A stretch of DNA of 15,777 nt from Candidatus Sumerlaeia bacterium (GTDB lineage: Bacteria; Sumerlaeota; Sumerlaeia; SLMS01). The translations under genes and the position numbers were made by a program. Shown in pieces: positions 410-15,777 of the stretch; the stretch's first letter is position 1, and the number at the start of each line of letters is the position of its first letter. The stretch spans positions 1 to 15,777 of the forward strand of contig JBBQYG010000089.1 of the NCBI GenBank assembly GCA_038208905.1, given 5' to 3'. The notes under the pieces were generated by a model. The model did no database searches and had not been told where the DNA came from. It saw only the letters and a program-made list of their open reading frames with translations.

Positions 410-536
410 CTTATCGACCTCGAAGAACTGGGCGATGAGGAGTGCCCCACCCACTCCCCCATTGCCTCCCCCTCCTCCGCGCCATCCTCATGGCCCCCGC
501 AGCCCAATCACCCCGGCGAAGGACCCTCCCCCACCC

Positions 537-1688
537 ATGAACACGCATCCCCTCGGCATCGACCTGTCGCTGTTTCCCATTCGCGAGAATCTGACTTATG
601 TGAACCACGCGGGGACGTCGCCGATTCCGCGGACGGCGGCGGATCGGTTGAAGCAGTTTGCCGACGAGGTGTCGGGTCATGCGAGTTCGGTGTATGACCA
701 GTGGACGCTGGGCCTGAACGCGACGCGGGCGAGCGCGGCGAGGTTGCTTGGGTGCGACACGGCGGAGGTGGCCTTTGCGCGCAGCACCACGGCGGGGCTG
801 AACCTGGTGGCGCTGGGGATCGACTGGAAGCCGGGCGATGTGATCGTGGCGGAGGAGAAGACCTTTCCCGCGAACTGGATCGGTTGGCGCGACATCGCGG
901 GCGGGCGCGGGGCGGAGCTGTGGTCGTGGCCGGAGCACGCCGATTACAAGTACCATCTGGAGGATCTGGAGGCGCGCCTCAAGCAGGGCGGCGTCCGCCT
1001 GGTCGCGGCGACCAGCGCCAACTTCGCCACGGGCTTTCGTCAGGACATGGAGGCGGTGGGGAAGCTCTGCAAGCAATACGACGCGCTGTTGTGCGTGGAC
1101 GCGATCCAGACGCTGGGCGTGTTCCCGCTGGACGTGAAGAAGTGCCACATCGACTTCCTGGCCGCCGACAGCCACAAGTGGCTGATGGGGCCGGAGGGGG
1201 CGGGGATTTTCTATGTCGCCAAGGAGCGGCTGGAGATGATCGATCCGGCGCTCGTCGGCTGGATGGGGCGGCGCAATTTCGGGCAGTACGAGAAAATGGA
1301 CCATCCGCCGGACCCGACCGCGCGCCGCTTCGAGGAGGGCTCGCCCAACGTGGCGGGTACGCTGGCGATGGGCGAGTCGCTGCGGTTCCTTCTGGAGACC
1401 GGCATCGACCGCATCGCCGTCCACAACCAGTCGATCTGCCGCGTGCTGCGCGAGGGCCTGGCGGACCTCGGCTGGTCGGTGGCCACGCCCGCCGCCGCCG
1501 ACTGCTCGGCCTCCATCATCGCGGCCCACCGCCCGGGCGTGGACTCCCAGGCTACCGCGTCGGCGATGTGGAAGGAGGGCAAGGTCTGGGCCGCCGCCCG
1601 CCGCGGATTCCTGCGCATTTCTCCCCACGTCTATCAGACGGAGGATGACATGCGGCACATTCTGGAGACGGTGAAGAAGGTGATGTAG
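537..1688 (+). CDS. Aminotransferase class V, PLP-dependent enzyme (cysteine desulfurase/cystine lyase-like)
   Basis: Motifs YVNHAGTSP, EVAFARSTTAGLNLVA, LCVDAIQTLG, DFLAADSHKWLMGPEGAG (PLP lysine), RRFEEGSPN and LRISPHVY. The start is placed at ATG 537 (GAAGGA upstream) because the extension to 435 is only poly-Pro low complexity. Confidence 0.93.
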   Translation: MNTHPLGIDLSLFPIRENLTYVNHAGTSPIPRTAADRLKQFADEVSGHASSVYDQWTLGLNATRASAARLLGCDTAEVAFARSTTAGLNLVALGIDWKPGDVIVAEEKTFPANWIGWRDIAGGRGAELWSWPEHADYKYHLEDLEARLKQGGVRLVAATSANFATGFRQDMEAVGKLCKQYDALLCVDAIQTLGVFPLDVKKCHIDFLAADSHKWLMGPEGAGIFYVAKERLEMIDPALVGWMGRRNFGQYEKMDHPPDPTARRFEEGSPNVAGTLAMGESLRFLLETGIDRIAVHNQSICRVLREGLADLGWSVATPAAADCSASIIAAHRPGVDSQATASAMWKEGKVWAAARRGFLRISPHVYQTEDDMRHILETVKKVM

Positions 1689-2478: not shown

Positions 2479-2943
2479 CTACTTCGCCGCGTCCGCATCC
2501 CCGTCGGCGGGCGTCGCGCCGTCGCGGGCGTGTTTCTGCAGGCGCCTCACCACGGTGAGAATCTCGCGGCGCAGGGTGTTGCTGGTCTGGTCGCCGAAGC
2601 TGCGTTCCAGCGCGGCGAGGGCGACGGAGTCGCCGGCGCCGTGGAGGCCGAGGGCGGCGACGGCGGCCTTGCGGACGAAGGGGCTCTCGTCCCGGAGGGA
2701 TTTCACGAGGAAGGGGGTGGCTTCGGGAAAGGGGTCGCTCATCTCCCCCAGGGCGTGGGCGGCGAGGAGGCGGACCTCGACCCGGCGGTCGCTTAGGGCG
2801 TGGAGGACTCGCAGCACCACCTCGCGGTCGAAGCAGCGCCGGTCCGTGACGGATGCAATGGAGTCGAACAACTCGAGTGGGTCATCGCCCCCCGCGCGGA
2901 GGAGTCCCTTCTCGGCGTCGGGCACCAAGTTGAGCGTAAACAT
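2479..2943 (-). CDS. HEAT-repeat (PBS lyase HEAT-like) protein, 154 aa
   Basis: Tandem HEAT motifs LHALSDRRVEVRLLAAHALGEM and FLVKSLRDESPFVRKAAVAALGLHG, plus a degenerate third repeat. Confidence 0.85.
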   Translation of the reverse strand: MFTLNLVPDAEKGLLRAGGDDPLELFDSIASVTDRRCFDREVVLRVLHALSDRRVEVRLLAAHALGEMSDPFPEATPFLVKSLRDESPFVRKAAVAALGLHGAGDSVALAALERSFGDQTSNTLRREILTVVRRLQKHARDGATPADGDADAAK

Positions 2944-3286: not shown

Positions 3287-4414
3287 CTAACAGAGCAGGC
3301 GATAGATATCGCGGACGCGCTCCGCTGCCTCCCGCCAGTCGAACTGGTGGGCCCGGGCGTGGCCCCGTGCGATCAGGTCCTCGCGGAGGCTGGCCGAGCC
3401 GAGGATGCGGATCAGCGCCGCCGCGATGTCCTCGGGTTCGTCGGGATTCACAAACTCGGCGGCGTTGCCACAGATCTCCGGCAGGGCGCCAGACCGCCCG
3501 GCGATCACGGGGACGCCGGCGGCCATCGCCTCCAGGGCGGGGAAGCCAAATCCCTCGTACTTGGTGGGAAACAGGAACACCCGCGCCGAGCCCAGGATTG
3601 CCCGCTGGTCCGCTGGCGGAATCTGGTCCAGCACGCGGACGCGCGATTCCCGGTCCAGATTCTTGATCACGCGCTCCACGTCGCGATAGAATCGGTCCTT
3701 CTTCACGATCAGGAGCAGGTCGGTGTCCTCCTCCTCCGCCTGGCGGATGAGCAAGTCGAACCCGCGCACGATATTGAGCAGGTTCTTGTTGGGGCGCGTG
3801 GATCCGTAGTACAGGAGATAGGGCCGCTGAAGCTGATACCGCTTCTGCACCTCGCGGGGGTCGCGCTCGGGTGGTTCGAAGAGGCTCTTGTCCAGGCCCG
3901 AGTTGATGACGATCAGCTTGGGGATCTCCGCGGGAAAAAACTCCTTCACCAAGTCCTGGGTGTGATAGCTGACGGAGATGATCCACTTCGCGCGCTTGAG
4001 CACCGCCGGATAGGCGTACCCATAGAACATGCGATAGGCGAGTTGGATCCACGGCATCCGCCGCGCGGAGAACTCCGGGTCCACAAACGGTTGCAAGTCG
4101 TGAATCGTCACCATCAACGGCGTCCGCATCGCCAGCGGCGCCAGCGGGAAGAGGCTGTGTACCAAGTCCACGCGAAGCGAGTCGATGTAGTTTCCCAGCG
4201 CCGCCAGCGTCGCCACGCTGACGGGCTTGGGCGAGTAGCTGATCAGGCGGAAGTTTGGGCCGACGGTAAGCCCCGCGCCGAACCCGGGGCGCACGAGCAC
4301 GTAGTACTCGTTCTCCGAGTCCACGCGGGAGAGGTTTTCGATCAGGTTCTGTGAATACGTGCCGATGCCGCTGAAGGAGCCGTCGAGATAGCGCGCGTCG
4401 ATGAGGATCTTCAT
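3287..4414 (-). CDS. Glycosyltransferase family 4 (GT-B fold), 375 aa
   Basis: N-terminal MKILIDARY...SGIGTY; VTIHDL; IISVSYHTQDL; YYGSTRPNKN; FLFPTKYEGFGFPALEAMAAGVPVI (EX7E motif); C-terminal FDWREAAERV. Confidence 0.95.
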   Translation of the reverse strand: MKILIDARYLDGSFSGIGTYSQNLIENLSRVDSENEYYVLVRPGFGAGLTVGPNFRLISYSPKPVSVATLAALGNYIDSLRVDLVHSLFPLAPLAMRTPLMVTIHDLQPFVDPEFSARRMPWIQLAYRMFYGYAYPAVLKRAKWIISVSYHTQDLVKEFFPAEIPKLIVINSGLDKSLFEPPERDPREVQKRYQLQRPYLLYYGSTRPNKNLLNIVRGFDLLIRQAEEEDTDLLLIVKKDRFYRDVERVIKNLDRESRVRVLDQIPPADQRAILGSARVFLFPTKYEGFGFPALEAMAAGVPVIAGRSGALPEICGNAAEFVNPDEPEDIAAALIRILGSASLREDLIARGHARAHQFDWREAAERVRDIYRLLC

Positions 4415-4681: not shown

Positions 4682-7387
4682 CTAATGGAGCATCCACATC
4701 GTGGCGTTGGTATTCGCCACGGTGACGGTGCCGCCCAGCCCGGAAAGGCCATCGACCGTGGCGCCGTTCCCACGGACGATATTTGTGATCCGGGCATCCC
4801 CGCTGACGCCGAGCATGGCCTGGCCGAGGCCGATCGCGCGGAGCTGGATCGTGGCAAAGGCAAGCGTTCCCGGGCGGTCGGTGTCGGAAAGCCCCGCCAG
4901 ATCCACCCCGCCCGTGAAGGGATTCATCACCGTTGCCTGGTTGAAGATCAGCGGATTCACCTGGCCGCCGGCCACCTGCAGGATATCCGGCGGAAAGGTG
5001 AGTCGCGTTCCCGCCGCGCGGATGGCGTTGGGGCCGGTCTCGATCACCAGATTGACGGAGAACTCCTGGTTGAGGACCACGTTGGAGGGGAAGTTCTGAA
5101 TGCTGAGGGAAATGGTGTCGCCCTTGGCGTCGGAGAGGTCCTCGCCCACAAGCGACTTGCCGAACTCGCCCAAGTTGCAGGGCACCTCCACAAGCAGGCA
5201 ACCCGGCGCGCCGACGTACTCGCTGAATAGCTTGAGCCCCACGGTGTCGAGGTCGGCGCTCGTGACCAGGCCGTTGCCGTTGGCGTCGCCACGCCCCCGG
5301 CATTCGACGCAGGTATAGTCGGCGCCGAGGTTGCTCTGAACGAAGACCAGATCGGCGGCGTTGACGAACAGGCTCAGGTCCGCGTCGCCCTGATACCCCG
5401 CCACGATCGGCGGATCCGTCTGGCTGGGATTGGTGCCGTTGTCCTGCTCCTCGATGTTGGGCAGGCCGTCTCCATCGGAGTCGTCGTTGGCGCCCTCGTT
5501 CTGGTTGCCGAAGTTGAAGATCTCCCAATCGTCGTCCAGCCCGTCGCCGTCGCTATCCACGAACGGCGGAACGGCCCCGGGCGCGCGGGAAACGATGCCC
5601 ACCACTTGGGCACGGGGGGACGATTCGCTGCAGTTGTCCACATTCACGACGGCGCGAAGGACCACGGAGCTGTTGTCGGCAAACGTATCGGCCAGCCCGG
5701 TGAGGCGATACGTCGTGCCATTGGCCGTAAGCCGGAACCCCGAGGGCGCGGCGATGATCGTGCCGGAAAGCACCGTCTCCGCGGGGGCAAGCGTCGCGAA
5801 GAATGCGTCCACTTGGGCGGCCACGAAGGGGAAGTTCGTGATGCGCACGCCGGCGGGAATCTTGAGCGGGTCGATGGCCTCTCCCGAAAAAACAGAGGCG
5901 ATCTGGCGGTTCATGGAGATCTCTCCCGGCGAGGTCGCGAACCGGAAGTAGTCGGTGACGACGGCGATCATCTCCGGCGTGACGGCGGCCTCGATGGCGG
6001 TAAGCAGCAACGCCTCGTTGCGCTTGGCGCGCAGGGACAGGACCACCTCGGGCGGCGGGCCTTCGTTCTCCACGCCGGGCAGGTAGCTCTCGCCCATTTC
6101 GCGCTCGTAGTAGTGATTGAGCAGGAACGCCGCCGCCGTGGAGCGCGGATCGACGGCCTTGCCATTGATCGCACGCAGGATCGCGGCATCGTACTGCAGG
6201 CGATACGCCGTGCGCCATGTGGCCAGCGTGGTTGACTGGTTGCAGAAGGCCGCCGCATCGATACACAGGCCACGCGGCGCAATCGCGGCCAGAAGCTGGC
6301 GCCCGCTGCCATCCAGCGCCTTTGCGCGGATCAGGTGGAATTGTTCGCCGGAGGTGCGGATGCCGAAATTGGCGGCGGTCTGCACGGGCGAGGACATTGC
6401 AAGGCCGCCCGGTGTCAGGACCTCCACCGCATAGGAAGCAGGATAGGGCTTCAGCGGAACCGGCGCGCCCGGCGGCATCACGCCCGCCGACGTGGGGGCA
6501 ACCGCGCCGCCCACCGTCAGCTCGACTACATCCAGCGACGGAGCCGCGGGAAACGAATTCACATCGCCCGCCGCGGTTGCGCGCAGCGTCTCGTCCAGCG
6601 TGGACCAATTGTCGCCATCCGTGTCCGCGAACTGCGGCGCCACGCTCATCGGGAGAATCGTGGGCGCGCCGCGCAGCAACTCGTCCAGGTCGTTGATGTT
6701 GTTGCCATTCGCGTCGCCCTGGGCGATGAATGGATCCGTGCCGACCACGACCTCGATGCGGTCGGGGATGGCGTCGCCATCCACGTCCGAACAGGGGAGC
6801 GAATCGATTGTATAGACAACGGTCTTGGTGGGGCCCGTGTCGCCGCCGCGCACGCCGCGATAGGCGACCGTGGTGGTCTGGACAACGGTGATGGCGCTGG
6901 AATCCCAATCCTGAAACCCGCCGCCGTTAATCGCATACTGTACCGTCGTTAGCGCATCGGGCGTCTGGAACCGCACGCGCTGCGGAGTCAGATAAGTCCC
7001 CGGATTCGGCGTCGCCAGCGCGCCGGTGAAGTCATACACGCCCGGCGCCCCGAAGAAGGACACCGCGCGGTCGGCGGCCACCTGATTGATCGAAACGAAC
7101 ACCCCCGGCGGAGCGACCTGCTCCACCACGAGGTTCGACTGCGGTGCAAAGCCCGTGGCCGCGCTGGTCGTGTCGCGGGCGACCGTGACCTGGCCCCCGT
7201 TGTAGGGAACAGCGATCCCCCTCACATAGCCGGGAACAAGGCGCCCCACCAGGGGGTAAGCCTCCGGATCGGTGTCGGGATTGCCGCTGTAGAAAAACAC
7301 GTTGCTCGTGGGCGCCTGGGCGCCAGCAAAGCCGACCGACGCGGCGACGAGGAGGAGCGAGGCGAGATACCGGCTGTTGAGTCGCAC
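4682..7387 (-). CDS. Secreted modular protein: Ig-like (CHB_HEX_C/Fn3-associated-like) module, TSP3-like Ca-binding repeats, dockerin-like and cohesin-like domains
   Basis: Start GTG 7387 with AAGGAG 6 nt upstream (alternative ATG 7432 overlaps the upstream stop as ATGA). Signal peptide RLNSRYLASLLLVAASVGFAGA|Q. Ig-like TPNPGTYLTPQRVRF...VQYAING...TTTVAYRGV. Repeats DVDGDAIPDRIE, DTDGDNWSTLDE, DSDGDGLDDDWE and DSDGDGLPNIEEQDNGTNP. Duplicated GDADLSLFVNAADL / GDANGNGLVTSADL. Cohesin-like VVLNQEFSVNLVI...LTFPPDILQV...LAFATIQLRAIGLGQAML. Confidence 0.88.
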   Translation of the reverse strand: MRLNSRYLASLLLVAASVGFAGAQAPTSNVFFYSGNPDTDPEAYPLVGRLVPGYVRGIAVPYNGGQVTVARDTTSAATGFAPQSNLVVEQVAPPGVFVSINQVAADRAVSFFGAPGVYDFTGALATPNPGTYLTPQRVRFQTPDALTTVQYAINGGGFQDWDSSAITVVQTTTVAYRGVRGGDTGPTKTVVYTIDSLPCSDVDGDAIPDRIEVVVGTDPFIAQGDANGNNINDLDELLRGAPTILPMSVAPQFADTDGDNWSTLDETLRATAAGDVNSFPAAPSLDVVELTVGGAVAPTSAGVMPPGAPVPLKPYPASYAVEVLTPGGLAMSSPVQTAANFGIRTSGEQFHLIRAKALDGSGRQLLAAIAPRGLCIDAAAFCNQSTTLATWRTAYRLQYDAAILRAINGKAVDPRSTAAAFLLNHYYEREMGESYLPGVENEGPPPEVVLSLRAKRNEALLLTAIEAAVTPEMIAVVTDYFRFATSPGEISMNRQIASVFSGEAIDPLKIPAGVRITNFPFVAAQVDAFFATLAPAETVLSGTIIAAPSGFRLTANGTTYRLTGLADTFADNSSVVLRAVVNVDNCSESSPRAQVVGIVSRAPGAVPPFVDSDGDGLDDDWEIFNFGNQNEGANDDSDGDGLPNIEEQDNGTNPSQTDPPIVAGYQGDADLSLFVNAADLVFVQSNLGADYTCVECRGRGDANGNGLVTSADLDTVGLKLFSEYVGAPGCLLVEVPCNLGEFGKSLVGEDLSDAKGDTISLSIQNFPSNVVLNQEFSVNLVIETGPNAIRAAGTRLTFPPDILQVAGGQVNPLIFNQATVMNPFTGGVDLAGLSDTDRPGTLAFATIQLRAIGLGQAMLGVSGDARITNIVRGNGATVDGLSGLGGTVTVANTNATMWMLH

Positions 7388-7428
7388 GGAAGGCTCCTTG
7401 CGGAGGCGTTGTATAGACACGGAATTGG

Positions 7429-10400
7429 TCATTGCGGCGCTATCTGGACCTCGATCTGGAGCGGGCCGATCAATTGCTCCAGTTCGAAGGTCTTCTTGTT
7501 CAGCTTGAGAATCACGTAGGCGTAGGGCCTAAACGGCACATGCCCCGAGTTATCGACGAAGAAGACCGTGGTGTTCTTCTTGAAGAAGAAGGGATCGTCG
7601 ATGACGCCATTGGTCCGGCGGATCTCCTCGATCACGGGAGAGACCGCGTGCCACTGGACACTGCTCAGGTCCGACCGCCTGCGCCAGACGATGAACGGCG
7701 GCTCCAGCACATCGAGCGGCGGGAACTCCGGGTTTTCCGAGCGGATGCCGATCAGTACGCTGCCGCCACGGACACCCTGTTCCGAGGTGATGGTCAGGTT
7801 GCCCTGGGGAACCGACTCCGGCAGGGGGCGCGCCGCCCAGCGCAGAAGCCCCATGCCGCCGGGCGCAAACTTCTGGGACGCCCAGATCAGGGGGAGCTGG
7901 TTGGTGCTGGACGCCGCGGCGCCGGCCTTGGGAACCGCGGCCACACTGACCTGATACTCCGCGTTCGTATCGAAATCGCTTCCGCTTCGGTCCAAGCTGC
8001 GCGTCGTGATCGAGTACTCGTTGTTGGCCGCGTCATAGGAGAAATTCCCCACGGCTCCCGGGTCGTTCACGTCGGAGAGCGGAAACTCCAGCGGCAGCGT
8101 CGGCGTTCCGATCTGGTTGATTCCCGCCTTCTTTGCAATCTTCACGTTGTAGTGCGAGATCCCCTGGCGCGGGCCCGTCCACTTCACCGTCACCGCGCGC
8201 TGGGCGGGGATGTCGTCGCCGCTGGCGAGGACTTCCAGAACCGTGGGGCGCGGCACGTTGCCCACCACCACGACCTCGGCCGGCACCACATAGGGGATGC
8301 CGATATTGCCGTGCTTGTCGAAGGGGGCCACGCTGTACTTCACCTGGGCCAGGCCCTCGGGATGGTAGTCGTCCACCAGGTCGAGGGTCGCCTCCACGCC
8401 GCAGGGAAACTCCTTCACCAAGGTATAGGAATTCCCGCCATCGACGCTGCGATACAGGCGAAACCCAGCCGTCTCTCCGCCGCCGCAGGCAACCTTGAGG
8501 CGGATCGGCGGGGTGTTTCCGCCGGGGAACGCGATGAGCTGCAACGGCTCGTTGGCGAGGTTGCCGCCCACGCAGTTCTCCTCCACGCCGCGCGATTCGA
8601 GAGACACCTCGTAGCACACGCGCGGCCCGCCCGGCACCCACGTCTGCGGCGGCGCGACATCGATGGTGGTCAGGCTGCCGTCAAACGTGACCGCCTCGAA
8701 CTTGTAGGTCGGAATCTCCCGGCTGCTGGTGACGGATTCATCCTCCGGCAGATCGACAATCTGAGTGCCGAGGCTGCTGAGGCTGGTGGTCGAAATCAGT
8801 TCCTGCCGTGATCCGCCCGTCACGTCGGTTTCCGTGCGATAGACGCGGACCTCGGTGTAGAGCTGGCTGGCCTTGGTGAACTTGAGGAGCGGAACCCACG
8901 TATCGCGGGAGGTGCCGGGCACCTCGCGCGTGGAACCCACGAGGAACGGCAGCGCGCGCGTCCCGCAGATGTCCAGGATTCCCTCCAGCGTCGGCGGCAA
9001 CACATCGTCGATCACGCCGCGCGCGGGGGGCGAGAGCGCGCTCTCGTTCCCGTGCGCGTCCACGGCGGAAACACAGTACCAGAACACGCGGCCCGGCGTC
9101 GTGGTCCCCGGCGGCAGATCGTCGAACACGATGCGCCGCTCGTTGGGATCGGCGGGCTGGTTGAGCGCCGTGATCAGTCCCTCGGTCAAGCCGTCCACCG
9201 CGGGAAACGGACCCTTCAGTCCCTGGTTCTCGTACTTCTGATAGCGATAGAGTCGATAGGTCGCCGTATCCTCGTCCTGGCGCGTGAAGAACACGCGGAG
9301 GAAGGGGACATCGTTGGCGCCGCGTTCCCTGACGACGTTCATGCCGCGCGGGGTGTTGGGCTCGAAGGTGTCGCGCACCGTCGCCTGGAGGGCGTTGCTC
9401 GGCAGGCCCGCGGTCCCCAGCAGATCGCGCGCGACGGCCCAGTAGGTGTAAGTCGCGCCGACGGGGAGAAGATCGTCCTCGTTCTCCGTATCGAGCCACG
9501 ATCCGTCGTCGGCGAAGACATACGACTGGTCCCCGGGCTCGTCGGGGATCGGCGACGGCGGAAGAATTGGGAACTCGTTGACGAGCGTTAGGTCGGCCTT
9601 CACCGAGTCGAAGTCCTCGCCCGGCCCGAGCGCGCGGCCCAGCTTGTAGATGTCGTATCCGAAGTTCACGTCGCGCTTGTCGTACAGCTCCGGCGGCACG
9701 TCCCAGTCGAAGAAGACGCGGCGGTGGTTGCCGCGCGCGGGCGTGAAGCCATCGCGGCCCCTGAGGAAGACTTCCTTCAGCGCGGCGGGTGCCGGCAGCA
9801 CCAGCGGCTCCGTGGGATCGAGGGTGATCTTGCCCAGCGCGTTCAGCGCGTTCCCCGCGGCGTCGCCCTGCCACAGCTCGTAGACATAGGGCCCGCCGTT
9901 CACGTCCACCACGTCGAGGTAGCCGAAGCCCTCGATCACGGAGAAGCCGTAGTTGATCTGCATCAGGAAATTGCGGCGCGTGGTGGCGTAGTCGGAGGCG
10001 TCCTTCCCCTCCAGCAGGTCGATGCAAAGCTGGGCGAATTCATCCTCGCTCTGGCCCGCGTTGCCATAGACGCGCTTCAGCGTTTCCCTGGCGTGCTCCA
10101 GGATGCGTCCCTCTCCGGGGCGGAAGAAGATGCCCTTGATCACGGCGACGGAGCGCGTCTTCTTGACCGTGCCGATCTGCTCGCGGACGCCGTTGTTCCC
10201 GGTGCGGAAGATCACCGAGGAATCGAGCTGGATCAGTTCCTCCAGCGTGTACCAGCGCAGCAGCACGCGCCGCCCGCCGGTGGTGTCCCCGCCGACGATT
10301 CCCGTGTAGTAGAGCGGCATCGGATTCGGCTGCGTCTGTGCCCGCGCGGAGCCCGCGGCGACCAACACCGCGCACGCCACCAGGAAGATTCGCACAGCCA

Positions 10401-10452
10401 GCCTTGCCATCGCGGATGGTCTCATCGTTGGTCCCTGTTGGAGTATGCTCAT
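7429..10452 (-). CDS. Secreted fibronectin type III-like multi-domain protein (~1007 aa)
   Basis: Start ATG 10452 overlaps the upstream TGA (10451-10449); in-frame ATGs at 10425 and 10410 are alternatives. The track extension to 10908 overlaps the real upstream gene. Signal peptide RLAVRIFLVACAVLVAAGSARA|Q. Fn3-type signatures: FGYDIYK...GATYTYWAVARDLLG; YRLYRY...WYCVSAVDAHGNESALS; GFRLYRSVDGG...KYSVAPFDKHGNIG; VTVKWTGP...YQVSVAAV. Confidence 0.88.
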   Translation of the reverse strand: MSILQQGPTMRPSAMARLAVRIFLVACAVLVAAGSARAQTQPNPMPLYYTGIVGGDTTGGRRVLLRWYTLEELIQLDSSVIFRTGNNGVREQIGTVKKTRSVAVIKGIFFRPGEGRILEHARETLKRVYGNAGQSEDEFAQLCIDLLEGKDASDYATTRRNFLMQINYGFSVIEGFGYLDVVDVNGGPYVYELWQGDAAGNALNALGKITLDPTEPLVLPAPAALKEVFLRGRDGFTPARGNHRRVFFDWDVPPELYDKRDVNFGYDIYKLGRALGPGEDFDSVKADLTLVNEFPILPPSPIPDEPGDQSYVFADDGSWLDTENEDDLLPVGATYTYWAVARDLLGTAGLPSNALQATVRDTFEPNTPRGMNVVRERGANDVPFLRVFFTRQDEDTATYRLYRYQKYENQGLKGPFPAVDGLTEGLITALNQPADPNERRIVFDDLPPGTTTPGRVFWYCVSAVDAHGNESALSPPARGVIDDVLPPTLEGILDICGTRALPFLVGSTREVPGTSRDTWVPLLKFTKASQLYTEVRVYRTETDVTGGSRQELISTTSLSSLGTQIVDLPEDESVTSSREIPTYKFEAVTFDGSLTTIDVAPPQTWVPGGPRVCYEVSLESRGVEENCVGGNLANEPLQLIAFPGGNTPPIRLKVACGGGETAGFRLYRSVDGGNSYTLVKEFPCGVEATLDLVDDYHPEGLAQVKYSVAPFDKHGNIGIPYVVPAEVVVVGNVPRPTVLEVLASGDDIPAQRAVTVKWTGPRQGISHYNVKIAKKAGINQIGTPTLPLEFPLSDVNDPGAVGNFSYDAANNEYSITTRSLDRSGSDFDTNAEYQVSVAAVPKAGAAASSTNQLPLIWASQKFAPGGMGLLRWAARPLPESVPQGNLTITSEQGVRGGSVLIGIRSENPEFPPLDVLEPPFIVWRRRSDLSSVQWHAVSPVIEEIRRTNGVIDDPFFFKKNTTVFFVDNSGHVPFRPYAYVILKLNKKTFELEQLIGPLQIEVQIAPQ

Positions 10453-13400
10453 AGCCCGCAGTCCGCCTTTGTTTCCACTGACCAGCCGTTTCGATACAGC
10501 GCGTCGGCATAGAGAACGCAGGTGGCGCACCACTTGTCGGCCCACACGTCGTCGGTGGTGAACCATGCCTCGGGCTCGCAGAAGCCGATGCCGCCGGCCA
10601 GCCAGCCGATGCCCTTGAAGAAGAAGCCGCCCGATTCCTTGCCGCCCAGAAGCACCAGCTTTCCGCGAACGGAGATGATGCAGATGCCCTTGCCATACAC
10701 CCCGGCGGTCAGCTTGCCGCCATAGGTTGGTCCCTCGGCGAAGTACCAGAATCCGGCGCCCGCCGTGGCGCCTACCCGCAGGAAGCATCCGTAGTCCACG
10801 ATGGGAATCGAGGCTTCGCCGAAGGCGTATATACCAGTCAGCTCGTCCTTGGTGATCACGCCGTCGATCTCGGGATCGATGGTGGAGATGATCTCGATCG
10901 CATTGCACGTCCGGCCCAGAAAGATGCCGCCGCGCATCGCCACCTTGTTGAAGACCACGGAACCGCGGAACGCGATGAAGGTTTCGTTCTCGCCAACCCC
11001 CGCCGCAAACGCGGGAGAGAGGATCTTGACGGCCTCGAAGTTGATCTCGCCCGTCGTCTCGATGCGGCCCGCCACGTCGGAGAGATAGAAGATCAGCGGG
11101 TCGTCGGGCTCGGGCGGCAGCTTGGAATTCAGCCGCAGCGACAGCTCGATGATATCGGCCACCAGCTTGCCGCGCGGCACCCGGATCGGCAGGTCGAAGA
11201 CGGCGATGGTGATGCGAATCGATTCGGCCCCCGCGGGCGTTCCGCAGATGACGCCCTCGGAATCGTTCTTGAATCGTTCCATGTCCAGCGCGCCGCGGAA
11301 GCCCATGTCGTCGGGTACCGACAATTCGAACGCGGCGTCGATATGCAATCGGTCGAGCGACTGGCCGCCGAAGACCGCGTAGCCGCTCATCTCCGCCGCC
11401 TTCACGCCAACCACGTCGTTGAACTGCTGCGTCACGTTGTTGAGCGAGCCGCCGATCTCGTCCAGATACGCCTTCATCTGGTTGTTCACCGTGTCGAAGA
11501 GGCCGTTGAGGAGGTTCTGGGCCTGTTGCCGCAAGGGCTCCAGCAGCTTTGCCACAACCTGGTTGATCGCCTGGGTGAACGCCGTGTTCAGCAGCGTGTC
11601 CACGATGAAGGTGTTCACCTCGTCCACGTCGAGGTTGCGGATCTTGGCCGAGTCCGACGCCCGCGCGGAGAGGAAGGTGTTCAGTTTCGACTGAATCTGG
11701 CTGATCGCCTGGTTGAACTGGGGGCCATCGATCAAGTCCTGTATCTGGGGAAGATTCACCAGGTCGCCGGGCGCGCCGATCGTGTTGCGAAGCTGGATCA
11801 GCGCGGGGCGAAGCTTCTCGTTGATGAGGACGTTCACGATATAGTCGCGCGCCGTGTTCAGGTCCGCGAACACCGTCTCGACGCCGCTGGAATCCCCGCC
11901 CGCGATCTCCACCAGGGCGGTGAGGATCTGGCCGATCTGTTCCGTCTCCAGCGAGTCCACCGTGTCGGCGATCGTCTCCAGCGCCGTCAGCGCCTCGTCG
12001 ATCTTGGCCAGCACCGGCGCCGTTGGCGAGTTCATCGCGTCGCGGATTTCCTGCTCGATGCTGCCGATGCGGTTGTTCACCGCCGCGGTCAACTGGTTCA
12101 CGTTCACTTGGCCCTGGGGAACCGCCTGGCCGATGTTGCGCAGCTCCGTCACCAGGGGCGCCACCGCGGGCCGCGTCAGGTTCTTCAGCGGCCCGCGCAG
12201 CGCGTCGGCAAGGCTGCCCGAGAGCGACTGGTTCACGTCGTCCATCGCGTTCTTGAGGGGAGAGAGCAGCGCCTGCACCGCCGGGTCGGCGATGTCGCCC
12301 ACGATGCTCGACAGGTTGAGCACCGGCAGGCCGTTGTAGCTCAGGCCGAAGAGGATCTCCGTGTCCTCCCGCGTGATGCCGCGGACGGACGAGGAGACCT
12401 CCACCACGACGAGGTCGCGGCCCTTCTCTTCTCCGCCGACGGTGGCGAAGCGGCGCGAGATGTTGTCGTACTTCACCTGGTATTCCAGGTCGATGATGCC
12501 CGCAAAGCTACCCTGCACCACGGGCCGGCGATCCGGCGCGTTCAGGTAGGCGTCCACCGAACTCACGCCCGCGGGGAAACCGTTGCGGTCGGGGTCGATG
12601 TCGCCCGGCGGCGTCGCGGCATAGGCGCGCCCGTCGAATACCTGGGGCGTGGCGCCGATATCCCACAGCGCCACCACCGGCGTCGCGCCCCAGAAGGGGA
12701 GTTTCATGTCGCCGATGACGATCGTGCGGCCCGCCAGCGCCTGTCCCCCGCCGTAGCGCGTATAGTAGATCGAGCGCAGCGTGAAGTCGTATCCTTGCAG
12801 CGTCGCGCTCGGCTCGCCCAGCACCGAGTTCTGCAGGATGTCGCCGTTGCCGGCGAAGTTTGTCTCCAGCAGGATCACGGTGGTCAGTTCCGGCACCGTG
12901 TTGGTGCTCGTGGTCCACAGCGTGCGGACCTCCGTGCTGATGCCGCCGCAGTCCACCGTTTGGGGATCGGCGAGCGGGCGGAAGTCGAGACTGGAAAAAT
13001 TGAAGTCGCGGTTCCAATAGGCCAGCGTTTCCTTGGCCGGCTGGGCGACCCGGGCGCCGCCTGGGGCGCCGCATTGTTCAAGCTCCAGCCCCTCGAAAGC
13101 CAAGTCGATTCCCGCGGGGAAGGGGAGCGAGACCACGCCGTCGATCTGGCTGTCCGCGTGCTGCTTGTTGTCCAGCAGCGTGTAGTTGAACTTGGTCAGG
13201 ACTGTCGGGTACTCGTTGTAGAGATCGAGCGGCGGCAGCGCCGCCACCGACGCGTCGGAGGCCTCCATCGTGCCGCTGACTCCGCCAGGGCGTATATACA
13301 GCTTGTTGGCGTCCGACGCGGTGAAGGGGGCATTCTTGCACGCCAGCACCAGGCTGAAATTCGTCCCCGTCAGTTCGCTCCGCGGCAGGTTGTAGCCCGC

Positions 13401-14618
13401 ATAGTGGCCGTCGCCGATGCTGTACTCCTCCTCGCCATACACGGCAAGGGAGGCCGCGTTCACGCCGGAGTTCACGCGCCCCGCCAGCAGGTATTGCGCG
13501 GGGGTGCTCGTCCCGCCCACGATGCGGAAGCCCGGCAGATACAGCGTTCCGTCAGCCGAAAGCGGCCCGTAGGAGAACGCGTCGAACTCATAGGTCTTCG
13601 CCGACTGCCCGCTGTTGTCCACCGTCCCCAGCAGGCCGCCGTCCTGGCCGATCGCCAGCGTTGCGGGACCATAGGCAACCGACTGCTTGTCGTTCGGCGA
13701 ACCCGAGCAGGCATCCTGGCGGAACTCCGTCAACAGCCCCTGCAGCGTCATCGATCCGTTGGCCAGCATCTGATTCGCGACATAGGAAAGCTGGAACTCC
13801 GCCAACCCGGCCAGCCAGAAATAGGGGAACCCCGTCACAAACGTCTCGCTGCCGTCGCTCTCCAACTGCACGGCGAGGCCGTTCTTGTCGATAAAGGCGG
13901 TGTTGGACGGCGCCACGGCGTTGGCGAAATAGGCGTCGTTTGAGCCGCGCGCCGCACTGCTCAGCGCGATCTCGTCGGCGTGGATGTAGTCCACCGACGC
14001 CACGGTGAGGAGAAAGCCCGTCGCATCGTTGAAGGTCGCGCTGGCAATCGCGACGGTGAAGGGCTGGCCCTCGATCTTCACGCGCTTGAGGCCGTTGCCG
14101 ACCGCCGCATTCGCCTTGAGGACGAGATCCTCGTCGATGCTCCCCATCGACAACGGCATAGGATCGTCGGAATACCAAGGCGAGGTATCAACTTCCTTAT
14201 AGACCAGCGGCGCGGCCAACTGCACGGCGTAAGTACCCGTGGCGCCCCCGGGCCCCAGCGCCGTGTTGGAGGAGAAGTATGGCCAATTCCCCGTGGGGGC
14301 CTCATACGGCTGGGGGAGCACAAAGGGGACGCTTCCGCCCAGAACCACCAGAACCGCCGGATTGCCGCCGTCGGGCGCCGCATCCAGCAGGCCCGTGTTC
14401 AGCGCGGGAAAAGGCCCCCAGCTGATCGTGCCCGAAAATTGGGCCGCGTTCAGCACCGCGATATTCGTGATGTCCGTCGTGATGTCGCCAAAGCGGAGCT
14501 GTGTCGGCTGGGCCGCCACAACGCCCGAGACCAAGAGAATCGCCGAGACGGCCAACCAGCGGGCCACGCGGAATGCGCAAAAGGACATGGGGGGAGTCCG
14601 TCCGTGGCCCCCGGACAC
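10449..14618 (-). CDS. Very large secreted hypothetical protein (~1389 aa): beta-rich N-terminal half, amphipathic helical middle, Gly/aromatic/Cys-rich C-terminal region
   Basis: Uninterrupted 4.17-kb frame with protein-like composition. GTG 14618 has GGAG upstream (alternative ATG 14588). Signal peptide RVARWLAVSAILLVSGVVAA|Q. The stop overlaps the next gene's ATG. Confidence 0.9.
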   Translation of the reverse strand: MSGGHGRTPPMSFCAFRVARWLAVSAILLVSGVVAAQPTQLRFGDITTDITNIAVLNAAQFSGTISWGPFPALNTGLLDAAPDGGNPAVLVVLGGSVPFVLPQPYEAPTGNWPYFSSNTALGPGGATGTYAVQLAAPLVYKEVDTSPWYSDDPMPLSMGSIDEDLVLKANAAVGNGLKRVKIEGQPFTVAIASATFNDATGFLLTVASVDYIHADEIALSSAARGSNDAYFANAVAPSNTAFIDKNGLAVQLESDGSETFVTGFPYFWLAGLAEFQLSYVANQMLANGSMTLQGLLTEFRQDACSGSPNDKQSVAYGPATLAIGQDGGLLGTVDNSGQSAKTYEFDAFSYGPLSADGTLYLPGFRIVGGTSTPAQYLLAGRVNSGVNAASLAVYGEEEYSIGDGHYAGYNLPRSELTGTNFSLVLACKNAPFTASDANKLYIRPGGVSGTMEASDASVAALPPLDLYNEYPTVLTKFNYTLLDNKQHADSQIDGVVSLPFPAGIDLAFEGLELEQCGAPGGARVAQPAKETLAYWNRDFNFSSLDFRPLADPQTVDCGGISTEVRTLWTTSTNTVPELTTVILLETNFAGNGDILQNSVLGEPSATLQGYDFTLRSIYYTRYGGGQALAGRTIVIGDMKLPFWGATPVVALWDIGATPQVFDGRAYAATPPGDIDPDRNGFPAGVSSVDAYLNAPDRRPVVQGSFAGIIDLEYQVKYDNISRRFATVGGEEKGRDLVVVEVSSSVRGITREDTEILFGLSYNGLPVLNLSSIVGDIADPAVQALLSPLKNAMDDVNQSLSGSLADALRGPLKNLTRPAVAPLVTELRNIGQAVPQGQVNVNQLTAAVNNRIGSIEQEIRDAMNSPTAPVLAKIDEALTALETIADTVDSLETEQIGQILTALVEIAGGDSSGVETVFADLNTARDYIVNVLINEKLRPALIQLRNTIGAPGDLVNLPQIQDLIDGPQFNQAISQIQSKLNTFLSARASDSAKIRNLDVDEVNTFIVDTLLNTAFTQAINQVVAKLLEPLRQQAQNLLNGLFDTVNNQMKAYLDEIGGSLNNVTQQFNDVVGVKAAEMSGYAVFGGQSLDRLHIDAAFELSVPDDMGFRGALDMERFKNDSEGVICGTPAGAESIRITIAVFDLPIRVPRGKLVADIIELSLRLNSKLPPEPDDPLIFYLSDVAGRIETTGEINFEAVKILSPAFAAGVGENETFIAFRGSVVFNKVAMRGGIFLGRTCNAIEIISTIDPEIDGVITKDELTGIYAFGEASIPIVDYGCFLRVGATAGAGFWYFAEGPTYGGKLTAGVYGKGICIISVRGKLVLLGGKESGGFFFKGIGWLAGGIGFCEPEAWFTTDDVWADKWCATCVLYADALYRNGWSVETKADCGL

Positions 14619-14820: not shown

Positions 14821-15777
14821 CTATACAACTTTGTGCGGCTCGCCGTCCGTCGCCCTGCGCGAGTGCATGCGCTGCAGCAGCACCGGCGGCAGGAGAAAGA
14901 GGGAGAGGAACACCGCGACGATGACAAACGAGTCCAGTGACTGCGCTTGGGACGGGGCGCGGAAGTGCCAGGTGGAATCGTTCCCCGCGGCCACGAGCAG
15001 AACCGTCAGGCCCATCGTCAGCAACACGAGCGGGCGAATCGCGCGCGGACCCGGCGGCGACCCGAGGAGTGCCAGCAGCGGCAGTTGAAGAATCACAAAG
15101 AAGGTTGCACACACGCCGATCACGTTGCTCCCGCCGAGGAGGATCTGGTTCATGCCCCTTCCCATCCTCATCCCCTCGAAGGCTCCATAGGCCCCCCCCA
15201 CCAACAGCCCCGGCAAAAAAAGGATCACGCCGTGCCACGCCGCGCTCAGCAGGTATGAACCCGTCAGGATTGTCGGCGGGGCCTCTCCCTCGCGACGCCG
15301 CAGCGCGATGATCGCGACCAGCACCAGGAAGCAGAGCAGGGCCTTGGGCCCTAAGAGCGTCGCGAGGTACTTGTGGATTCCCCTGCCAACCGCCATCCGC
15401 GCCGCAAGGCCCGCCATCATCGCCACGCACGTCAGCAACGCCGCTGGGACCATCGCGCGAAACGTCGCCGGGGCCCGCTTAGCCACGCGCCAGAAGTACG
15501 GCCACAACGCCGCCGCGCGCTCCTCGGGCTCCGTCCAGCCGCTCGCCTCCATCGAGGCCCAGCTCACCCGCCTCAGCGTCTCGCCCTCGACCTGCGCAAA
15601 GAACCGCAAACCCGCGAAGCGCCCAAATCGATAGCACCAATAGACCGCCAACGGAAATAGAATCGCTGCGTCGGCGAAGTCCGAAAATACCAATCGCGCG
15701 ACCGACACCCGCGATCTCCACTCGTTATTCGCGAATTCATAGAGCACGCCGCCGATCACCTGCCTCGGGACAACCTC
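14821..15777 (-). CDS. Multi-pass membrane hypothetical protein (frame open to the window edge; possibly 5'-partial)
   Basis: Several hydrophobic segments, e.g. AAILFPLAVYWCY, ALLTCVAMMAGLAA, ALLCFLVLVAIIAL, GVILFLPGLLVGG, VCATFFVILQLPLLALL, LVLLTMGLTVLLVAA and FVIVAVFLSLFLLPPVLL. No stop lies between GTG 15759 and position 15777. Confidence 0.75.
   Translation of the reverse strand, partial: EVVPRQVIGGVLYEFANNEWRSRVSVARLVFSDFADAAILFPLAVYWCYRFGRFAGLRFFAQVEGETLRRVSWASMEASGWTEPEERAAALWPYFWRVAKRAPATFRAMVPAALLTCVAMMAGLAARMAVGRGIHKYLATLLGPKALLCFLVLVAIIALRRREGEAPPTILTGSYLLSAAWHGVILFLPGLLVGGAYGAFEGMRMGRGMNQILLGGSNVIGVCATFFVILQLPLLALLGSPPGPRAIRPLVLLTMGLTVLLVAAGNDSTWHFRAPSQAQSLDSFVIVAVFLSLFLLPPVLLQRMHSRRATDGEPHKVV

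Follow-up and report, generated by a model that had tools for sequence, protein, structure and literature searches.

In a 15,777-nucleotide stretch of contig JBBQYG010000089.1 from a Candidatus Sumerlaeia bacterium (GenBank assembly GCA_038208905.1; hereafter the window), three long genes follow one another on the minus strand. We named them A, B, and C in transcription order. Taken together, their products are probably an undescribed cell-envelope machine. The trio is a single, old three-gene unit, mobile or patchily retained, and none of the three proteins belongs to a described family. Judged from their N-termini, A, B, and C are all predicted to be exported, each with its own Sec-type signal peptide. 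The trio is probably anchored in the membrane by the barrel-like domain at the C-terminus of A, and not by the dockerin/cohesin element of C that was proposed in a preliminary description of this DNA.

Conservation of the three-gene unit

The three minus-strand open reading frames (ORFs) occupy positions 4682-14618 of the window. In the ORF list they run at 10449..14618 (1389 amino acids counted from a GTG), 7429..10908 (1159 amino acids counted from the earliest GTG), and 4682..7432 (916 amino acids, ATG start). The genes and the elements at their ends are as follows.

10449..14588, minus strand: gene A, 1379 amino acids, giant protein predicted to be exported, founding member of its superfamily; identical to database protein P0004
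7429..10452, minus strand: gene B, 1007 amino acids from the ATG at 10452; signal peptide, then about seven Fn3/Ig-like modules
4682..7432, minus strand: gene C, 916 amino acids from the ATG at 7432
10449..10452, minus strand: ATGA overlap of the A stop with the ATG of the longest B; the strand reads gggctATGAgc
7429..7432, minus strand: ATGA overlap of the B stop with the C ATG; the strand reads cgcaATGAcc
14508..14588, minus strand: predicted Sec-type signal peptide of A, residues 1-27 (MSFCAFRVARWLAVSAILLVSGVVAA, followed by QP), from the translation with the cleavage site set by eye

A query with A matched in 6 of 41 related genomes, the window's own included, and one genome carried two copies. 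By tblastn, six loci of five other Sumerlaeota genomes hold A, B, and C arranged and oriented as in the window, with identities of about 42-49 % for A, 40-44 % for B, and 40-45 % for C. The flanking genes vary by locus: glycosyltransferase, HEAT, and aminotransferase genes in the window, and FG-GAP, cupin, PAS/GAF, NrfD, and Na+/H+ antiporter genes elsewhere. When all other ORFs of the loci were compared with one another, no fourth shared gene emerged beside the trio. Genome G012 has two whole trios (L010 and L013), the second with a longer A (1501 amino acids) and a C of 1233 amino acids that carries an N-terminal extension of about 350 residues.

The arrangement reaches far beyond these relatives. 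When the C-terminal domain of A was searched against 185,579 species genomes, eight loci came up, three of them the known Sumerlaeota contigs. The five distant loci come from one Omnitrophota metagenome-assembled genome (MAG) and four bacterial MAGs (G+C 46-59 %), and their successive genes are A-like (about 29-31 % identity), B-like (27-29 %), and C-like (23-26 %). One of these contigs stops after B, and C is not visible there. When a metagenome scan was seeded with remote, larger relatives, profile searches found the A-B-C order in six of six loci, with A-type proteins of about 1800-2060, B-type proteins of 1097-1174, and C-type proteins of 1136-1479 amino acids; the B/C junction in these loci is frequently a 4-nucleotide overlap. 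At L027 (5332-11455) the A-type gene is divided into two overlapping ORFs of 688 and 1354 amino acids with the junction at 7391-7398; the division may reflect a frameshift or an assembly error, or it may be genuine.

That the cassette might be conserved had been suggested from the window alone, and the gene-neighbourhood check bears this out. Among the 17 other loci compared (6 Sumerlaeota, 5 distant, and 6 metagenome loci, out of several hundred), A and B are adjacent in all 17 and C follows B in 16. With profiles of the A domain, B, and C, full-length proteins turned up in 6 of the 75 genomes of the phylum, the same 6 for each profile, with seven copies of each protein. Beyond these, the profiles matched only isolated Fn3-like or TSP3-like stretches in the phylum, none above 59 bits. 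The identities of A/B/C fall in step from tier to tier (about 48/42/41, 30/28/25, and 24/24/28 %), a description of loci that are kin to one another, given without a statistical test.

Gene starts, overlaps, and export signals

The start of A is most likely the ATG at 14588, as in database protein P0004, with a GTG at 14618 as the alternative. The identical public B protein (P0017) has 993 amino acids counted from an ATG at 10410, 38 nucleotides past the A stop, and the identical public C protein (P0032) has 901 amino acids counted from a GTG at 7387. Both ATGA overlaps of the proposed operon are present, at 10452-10449 and 7432-7429. They hinge on the choice of starts; with any alternative start, the gaps between A, B, and C stay below 50 nucleotides. 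Between 4300 and 15000, we counted no promoter-like (sigma-70-like) sites against 1.3 expected, and 8 terminator-like sites against 6.5 expected, which is the chance level. These counts would be compatible with a single transcript for A-B-C.

The N-termini of the three proteins are alike, with a positively charged start, a hydrophobic segment, and a small-x-small site just ahead of Gln. The Sec-type signal peptides of the preliminary description are seen in the translations, with the same cleavage sites read by eye: VAA/QP in A, ARA/QT in B, and AGA/QA in C. The hydrophobic N-terminus is also present in A homologues.

Searches for known families

None of the three proteins reached a curated cut-off in Pfam or NCBIfam. 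In Pfam, A gave Prominin alone (14 bits, cut-off 34), B gave fn3 (PF00041, 18.8 bits, cut-off 25), and C gave TSP3_bac (PF18884, 16.9 bits, cut-off 25) and CHB_HEX_C_1 (13.2 bits, cut-off 22). NCBIfam held no match for A and none for B, and in C the TSP3 stretch alone matched the MtsD and CglD models at 13-19 bits (cut-offs 400-800). Neither database showed a catalytic family in any of the three proteins, in agreement with the earlier remark that no catalytic motif could be recognized. Sequence profile searches of the PDB were insignificant (best E 0.21 for A and 0.075 for C, no match at E≤1 for B). In the ESM Atlas, the best feature score for A was 0.84, below the usable level, with a stray DUF6603 cluster at 0.79, and the C core had no usable match. 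A full-text literature search, with titles and abstract openings inspected, returned nothing describing the A/B/C family. The expectation that the trio is not an already characterized system thus stands, and no Pfam model, NCBIfam model, or solved structure covers the core of A, B, or C. One candidate was set aside: PADLOC paired the helical region of A with the ZorA tail at 19 bits, a match that is probably compositional.

A word-based search of 5.8 billion proteins gave 13 matches for A, 15 for B, and 19 for C. Their source names include 'hypothetical protein', 'fibronectin type III domain-containing protein', and 'chitobiase/beta-hexosaminidase C-terminal domain-containing protein', and the organism label of some is Candidatus Sumerlaeia. 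The final 740 residues of A, used as a profile in an exhaustive search of 1.84 billion cluster representatives (clusters at 50 % identity), matched 658 of them at E≤0.001; of these, 563 remain at E≤1e-10 and 354 at E≤1e-30. With so many clusters for the C-terminal half of A alone, the cassette is not peculiar to one MAG. Among 150 matches listed, most are 1750-2300 amino acids long and have the matched region at the extreme C-terminus. When 18 representatives were compared with Pfam, the conserved part had no family and variable add-ons were found at the N-terminus only: FG-GAP (119 bits), Calx-beta (29-36 bits), and a Rax2-type propeller (33 bits). One further relative has LamG domains. Members with a named source are found in a Verrucomicrobiota MAG and in Oceanococcus atlanticus, and NCBIfam has no model for them; the Oceanococcus protein (ORE86880.1 / WP_146680223.1) is labelled 'Calx-beta domain-containing protein' alone. 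Since O. atlanticus, a marine bacterium that is cultured and non-pathogenic, carries an A-type protein, the system can be tested at the bench.

Architecture of protein A

We modelled A with AlphaFold2 in two parts, residues 640-1379 (model 1, alignment of 37 sequences) and residues 28-730 (model 2, alignment of 34 sequences). In the models, a beta body is followed by helices and then by C-terminal strands, a beta/helical/beta build that matches the beta/helical core subunit foreseen in the preliminary description.

12399..14507, minus strand: predicted all-beta region, A residues 28-730 (model 2; mean predicted local distance difference test, pLDDT, 89.4; predicted template modelling score 0.73)
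11409..12311, minus strand: predicted helical bundle, A residues ~760-1060, about nine helices (DSSP of model 1, model residues 120-421)
10455..11405, minus strand: predicted outer-membrane-barrel-like domain, A residues 1062-1378, 16 amphipathic strands of 10-17 residues (model 1, residues 423-739)

The C-terminal domain is the best-conserved part of the superfamily, and its strands mostly have a pLDDT of 85-94, compared with a mean of 78.6 for model 1 as a whole. In a wide VIA-align search with model 1, membrane beta-barrels filled 42 of the 50 best rows; the other 8 were helical bundles aligned on the helical part. Maltoporin gave Z 13.5 (root-mean-square deviation, rmsd, 10.0 Å, 280 aligned residues), OprD-type channels about 13, and TonB-dependent transporters 10-12.5 over 297-314 residues, from model residue ~65. 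The transport units of autotransporters followed (AIDA-I Z 10.8, rmsd 7.2 Å, 173 aligned; Hbp Z 10.2; EspP Z 9.9), together with the FimD usher (Z 10.0 over 265 residues, from model residue 57). FhaC (Z 10.4) and BamA (Z 10.0-11.2) were no better than the porins. In a second fold look at the same model, Fiu reached Z 14.5 (rmsd 8.4 Å, 252 aligned).

Features of the strands themselves also point to an outer-membrane barrel. The model has an even number of long antiparallel amphipathic strands, the generic mark of such a barrel. Hydrophobic and polar residues alternate along the strands across the 37 aligned sequences, with face means of 0.16 and -0.80 on an octanol-type scale. As read from DSSP, one rim of the sheet has short turns and the opposite rim long loops, and both chain ends lie on the short-turn side. 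The C-terminal residue is Y, F, L, H, I, or V in 115 of 149 superfamily representatives, and 55 of the 149 end in a W-x-hydrophobic-x-hydrophobic motif (e.g., NGSWDVDY) that resembles a beta-signal. Four cysteines (A residues 1228, 1268, 1303, and 1337) are nearly invariant, being present in 143-148 of 143-149 representatives; they suggest two conserved disulfides and fit an oxidising compartment. The window genome also has an Omp85 homologue (PF01103, 151 bits), encoded by a gene other than A. Taken together, model and sequence give moderate support to A as an outer-membrane protein anchored by its C-terminal barrel. In the Sumerlaeota clade, A has up to four extra cysteines, one of them within a six-residue C-terminal extension.

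The helical bundle precedes the strand domain directly, and its last helix of 58 residues continues straight into strand 1. The helical part gave only generic helical-bundle fold matches, and Foldseek found a weak likeness to HblL1, ClyA, SmhB, and Cry6Aa (E ~0.01-0.06). A few strands lie ahead of the bundle at model residues 51-112, with a pLDDT of 60-84.

The N-terminal body of about 700 residues is predicted to be a novel fold with no detectable relative among solved structures. In the wide VIA-align search, none of 48161 PDB chains reached Z 5, and the best row was Z 4.8 over 121 residues; with this tool, models without a clear match usually still reach a best Z of 7-8. The BFVD library of viral structures held nothing at E≤1e-3. 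The weak rows point to small up-and-down barrels and to LptD-, LptC-, and TamB-type sheets (Z 3.6-4.8). Model 2 exceeds the recommended size of the search tool, and single sub-domains of the body may have relatives.

Two fold leads were rejected. In the Foldseek search of the PDB with the body, Rhs, teneurin, and TcB-TcC cocoons ranked top (E 2.7e-4 to 3e-2). These rows have a template modelling (TM) score of 0.04-0.10, an rmsd above 34 Å, and a probability of at most 0.12, and all Foldseek PDB rows stay at TM 0.14 or below. Upon re-alignment, 0 of 989 Foldseek-ranked chains reached Z 5, and no Rhs/Tc chain was in the top 50. For model 1, a lead to vitellogenin, MTP, and ApoB headed the Foldseek rows at a probability of at most 0.23, and only the ApoB beta-belt fragment recurs.

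Proteins B and C

B is conserved over its whole length in an alignment of 20 sequences, and it looks like a chain of Fn3-like modules. Read by eye, it consists of about seven Fn3/Ig-like modules, each closing with a Y-x-Y-x-V...D..GN-type strand. The best conserved is module 1 (residues ~40-215), which has a helical insert of about 70 residues and the most invariant positions. Among 20 family members, 6 match fn3 at E≤0.05, with a best value of 2.5e-4. Of the Fn3 scaffold proposed for B, the Fn3-type chain stands by appearance, whereas the window protein itself stays below the Pfam cut-off (18.8 versus 25 bits).

C falls into a conserved core and a clade-specific end.

5393..7432, minus strand: conserved core of C, residues 1-680 (alignment of 16 sequences)
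5240..5389, minus strand: dockerin-like double EF-hand stretch, C residues ~683-732 (Dockerin_1 E 0.0017 with the segment scanned alone)
4682..5215, minus strand: clade-specific domain, C residues ~740-916, ending TMWMLH; no recognized fold

The core, whose conservation covers roughly the first 670 residues, begins with the signal peptide and an N-terminal domain, followed by an Ig-like CHB_HEX_C-type module, TSP3 repeats, a central region of about 330 amino acids, and a second TSP3 block. TSP3_bac is found in 8 of 16 family members (best E 8.9e-18), and the acidic D-x-D-x-D-G...D..E repeats are invariant in the alignment. C is accordingly described here as a putative Ca-binding TSP3/Ig-like protein. 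The central region matched nothing in these searches, and FG-GAP repeats occur at the N-terminus of 5 of the 16 members.

The anchor suggested by the preliminary description did not hold up as a part of the conserved unit. The dockerin stretch of the window scores 18.9 bits with Dockerin_1 (PF00404; cut-off 22.9), and relative P0037 scores 25.3 bits. Together with the terminal extension, it is confined to the window C and its closest kin and is missing from most C homologues; the cohesin part is unsupported. The last 177 amino acids of C have no Pfam family at E≤1. What is shared by nearly all C-type proteins is a short hydrophobic/aromatic tail following an acidic linker. The family-wide terminal motif is W-x-hydrophobic-aromatic, with the window copy at 4685-4702 (minus strand). 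The tails read WMLH, WVFF, and WLAY in the near group, and they are HFYFLYLSLL-like in 4 of 5 complete genes of the distant metagenome loci. Such a tail may be a docking or donor strand.

Two distant C-type proteins (L019 14437-18747 and L025 14945-18550) have sub-threshold matches to the NCBIfam model 'Amuc_1099 family pilus-like system protein'. These matches have 24-30 bits (cut-off 50) over about 30-37 residues and are maybe a mere common repeat motif. They point toward the pilus-like gene cluster of Akkermansia.

Comparison with known systems

One parallel in build is the classical autotransporters (AIDA-I, Hbp, and EspP), which share with A a signal peptide, a big beta-rich N-terminal region, a helix before strand 1, and a terminal barrel-like domain. 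However, A has no Pfam match to the autotransporter beta-domain (E≤0.1), at least 16 strands rather than 12, a 300-residue helical bundle in place of a short linker, and a body with no recognizable beta-helix. An autotransporter is also a single gene, whereas A is always found with two partner genes.

The chaperone-usher systems (FimD/PapC) likewise place a large barrel, in A a predicted and possibly interrupted one, beside partners of Ig-like fold, and the short hydrophobic strand at the end of C could serve as donor. In contrast to these systems, A, B, and C have no Usher or PapD Pfam match and no chaperone gene, the insert in A is helical rather than a beta-sandwich plug, and the partners are about 1000 amino acids long, compared with about 150 for pilins. 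The FimD fold match (Z 10.0) is generic. Two-partner secretion and Omp85 proteins (FhaC, BamA, and PlpD) share a C-terminal 16-strand barrel, predicted in the case of A, and a neighbouring exported protein with a conserved N-terminal module, for which module 1 of B would be the counterpart. They differ in that A has no Omp85/POTRA match, B has no two-partner secretion domain match, and porin-type barrels outscore Omp85 barrels.

LptD-LptE and AsmA/TamB resemble the trio in pairing a very large beta-rich protein with an outer-membrane barrel, which in A is predicted, and the sub-domain matches to them are weak (Z 3.6-4.2, below the meaningful level). Unlike these bridges, A has no family match, its inner-membrane anchor is at most a cleavable-looking signal peptide, and the helical and Fn3/TSP3 parts of A-C have no counterpart. 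Tc (ABC) toxins and Rhs systems resemble the trio in having three adjacent genes for proteins of about 1000-2000 amino acids, but there are no Tc or RHS families in the trio and no variable toxin tip. The likeness of A to type V, chaperone-usher, two-partner, and LptD systems is one of principle and not of membership. The trio is akin in kind to barrel-anchored giant envelope proteins, and there is a real chance that it represents a new type of machine.

Proposed function and alternatives

We tentatively propose that the trio is an outer-membrane-anchored scaffold for surface display or adhesion, a reading to which we give slightly less than an even chance. It is favored because the parts of A come in the order of autotransporters, because the variable add-ons on the ends of A and C are of adhesion type, and because the genome has secretins. 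In this proposal, A would be exported via Sec, and the barrel assembly machinery (BAM) would insert its C-terminal domain of at least 16 strands into the outer membrane. The long helix and the 300-residue bundle would sit just before the barrel, with the all-beta body of 700 residues N-terminal to them. B, an Fn3-like rod, and C, with its Ca-binding repeats and hydrophobic tail, would be produced alongside A and come together on it; that the three bind one another, and do so in a fixed stoichiometry, is suggested by gene order alone. The conserved core would then bear changeable binding modules (FG-GAP, Calx-beta, LamG, and beta-propeller at the N-terminus of A; FG-GAP and dockerin-like in C). 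A would act as an autotransporter-type anchor with two obligatory partners. The genome has four secretin genes, which could export B and C.

Several observations weigh against this proposal. Foldseek gave no PDB match for model 1 at E≤0.001, the barrel matches have a high rmsd (7-11 Å), and one row of the second fold look was not a barrel but the open amphipathic beta-belt of ApoB100 (Z 13.1). The strand domain is a predicted barrel, and a closed membrane barrel is not proven. In the window A, which ends in ...WSVETKADCGL, the terminal motif is internal (WSVET), with Thr in place of the relatives' aromatic residue and a six-residue extension behind it; the motif plus a short Cys-bearing extension also occurs in close relatives. 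Between two and six strands preceding the helical bundle may join the sheet, as the alignments with 18- and 22-strand barrels begin at model residue ~65-94; the bundle would then be an insertion and the N-terminal body possibly periplasmic. Furthermore, B and C have no recognizable outer-membrane route besides the general secretin pathway. TSP3 repeats are known also from periplasmic linkers of OmpA-type proteins.

Some of these points would suit a trans-envelope transport or assembly machine, the main alternative, which we consider unlikely. Here A would form a gated pore from a barrel of 18-22 strands that is plugged by the inserted bundle, comparable to the usher plug between barrel strands or to LptD with its periplasmic beta-jellyroll. 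The N-terminal body of A, together with B and C, would be periplasmic or pass through, and the cargo would be lipid, polymer, or Ig-like partners. The larger barrels do cover more of the model (TonB-dependent transporters Z 10.2-12.5, FimD Z 10.0), and the asymmetry of the rims, with both chain ends on the short-turn side, suits a pore of this kind. B and C carry Sec signals only, so a periplasmic site requires no further export step. The sub-domain matches of the body lean to LptD, LptC, the TamB beta-taco, and TamA (Z 3.6-4.2), and the top Foldseek rows for model 1 are vitellogenin, MTP, and ApoB (probability ≤0.23). All of these matches are weak, however, with a Z of about 4 lying under the tool's meaningful level, and the strands before the bundle have the lower confidence (pLDDT 60-84). 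The add-ons of the relatives (FG-GAP, Calx-beta, LamG, and dockerin-like) are typical of extracellular proteins instead, and no inner-membrane or ATPase gene is conserved beside the trio.

It is rather unlikely that A is an export-and-assembly platform, with a helical gate and a novel body, for Ig/Fn3 partners that would dock through the C tail. The trio would in that case be an undescribed pathway of Sumerlaeota, Omnitrophota, Verrucomicrobiota, and some Gammaproteobacteria.

Quite improbable, in our view, is that the three exported proteins share a transcript and a pathway without a physical complex, for example as independent surface or matrix proteins. A signal peptide on each protein and add-on domains that vary independently would agree with this. 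Nevertheless, the order, tight spacing, and strict co-occurrence persist down to about 24-30 % identity in several phyla, and in the phylum searched none of A, B, and C occurs full-length without the others. C also keeps its short hydrophobic tail, which resembles a docking strand, beyond a flexible acidic linker. A secreted three-component toxin (ABC/Tc or a tripartite pore-former, with A inserting into the membrane and B/C binding or delivering) is highly improbable: the three large coupled genes recall TcA/TcB/TcC in size and Foldseek ranked Rhs/teneurin/TcB-TcC top for the body and likened the helical part weakly to HblL1, ClyA, SmhB, and Cry6Aa, but the Rhs/Tc rows have TM 0.04-0.10 with 0/989 re-aligned chains at Z 5, Pfam families of the Tc, SpvB, RHS, and toxin types are absent from all three proteins, conservation is highest at the C-termini, unlike in variable toxin tips, and no small immunity-like gene is conserved beside the trio.

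The outer-membrane-anchored scaffold remains the reading we prefer. If A is indeed a barrel with two obligatory partners, the trio would be a widespread envelope system that is absent from the catalogues of secretion and surface-assembly systems, and it would open a way to study the cell surface of little-known phyla.

Other features of the window

Long antisense ORFs overlie A-C (e.g., 11343-13943 on the plus strand; up to 866 amino acids). They are attributed to the high G+C content and are not extra genes; in related loci they are mere shadows of the sense genes. Just upstream of A, a 312-amino-acid ORF at 14821-15759 (minus strand) has several hydrophobic segments, with no Pfam family and no conservation beside the trio elsewhere. 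At ~1760-2480 the G+C content drops to 0.58 from about 0.65, and no long ORF there matches any family; Rfam and tRNA scans of the window, this stretch included, were empty. Among the neighbours of the trio, none of which is linked with it in other genomes, are a class-V aminotransferase at 435-1688 (plus strand), a small HEAT-repeat protein at 2479-2943 (minus strand), and a GT4 glycosyltransferase at 3287-4414 (minus strand).

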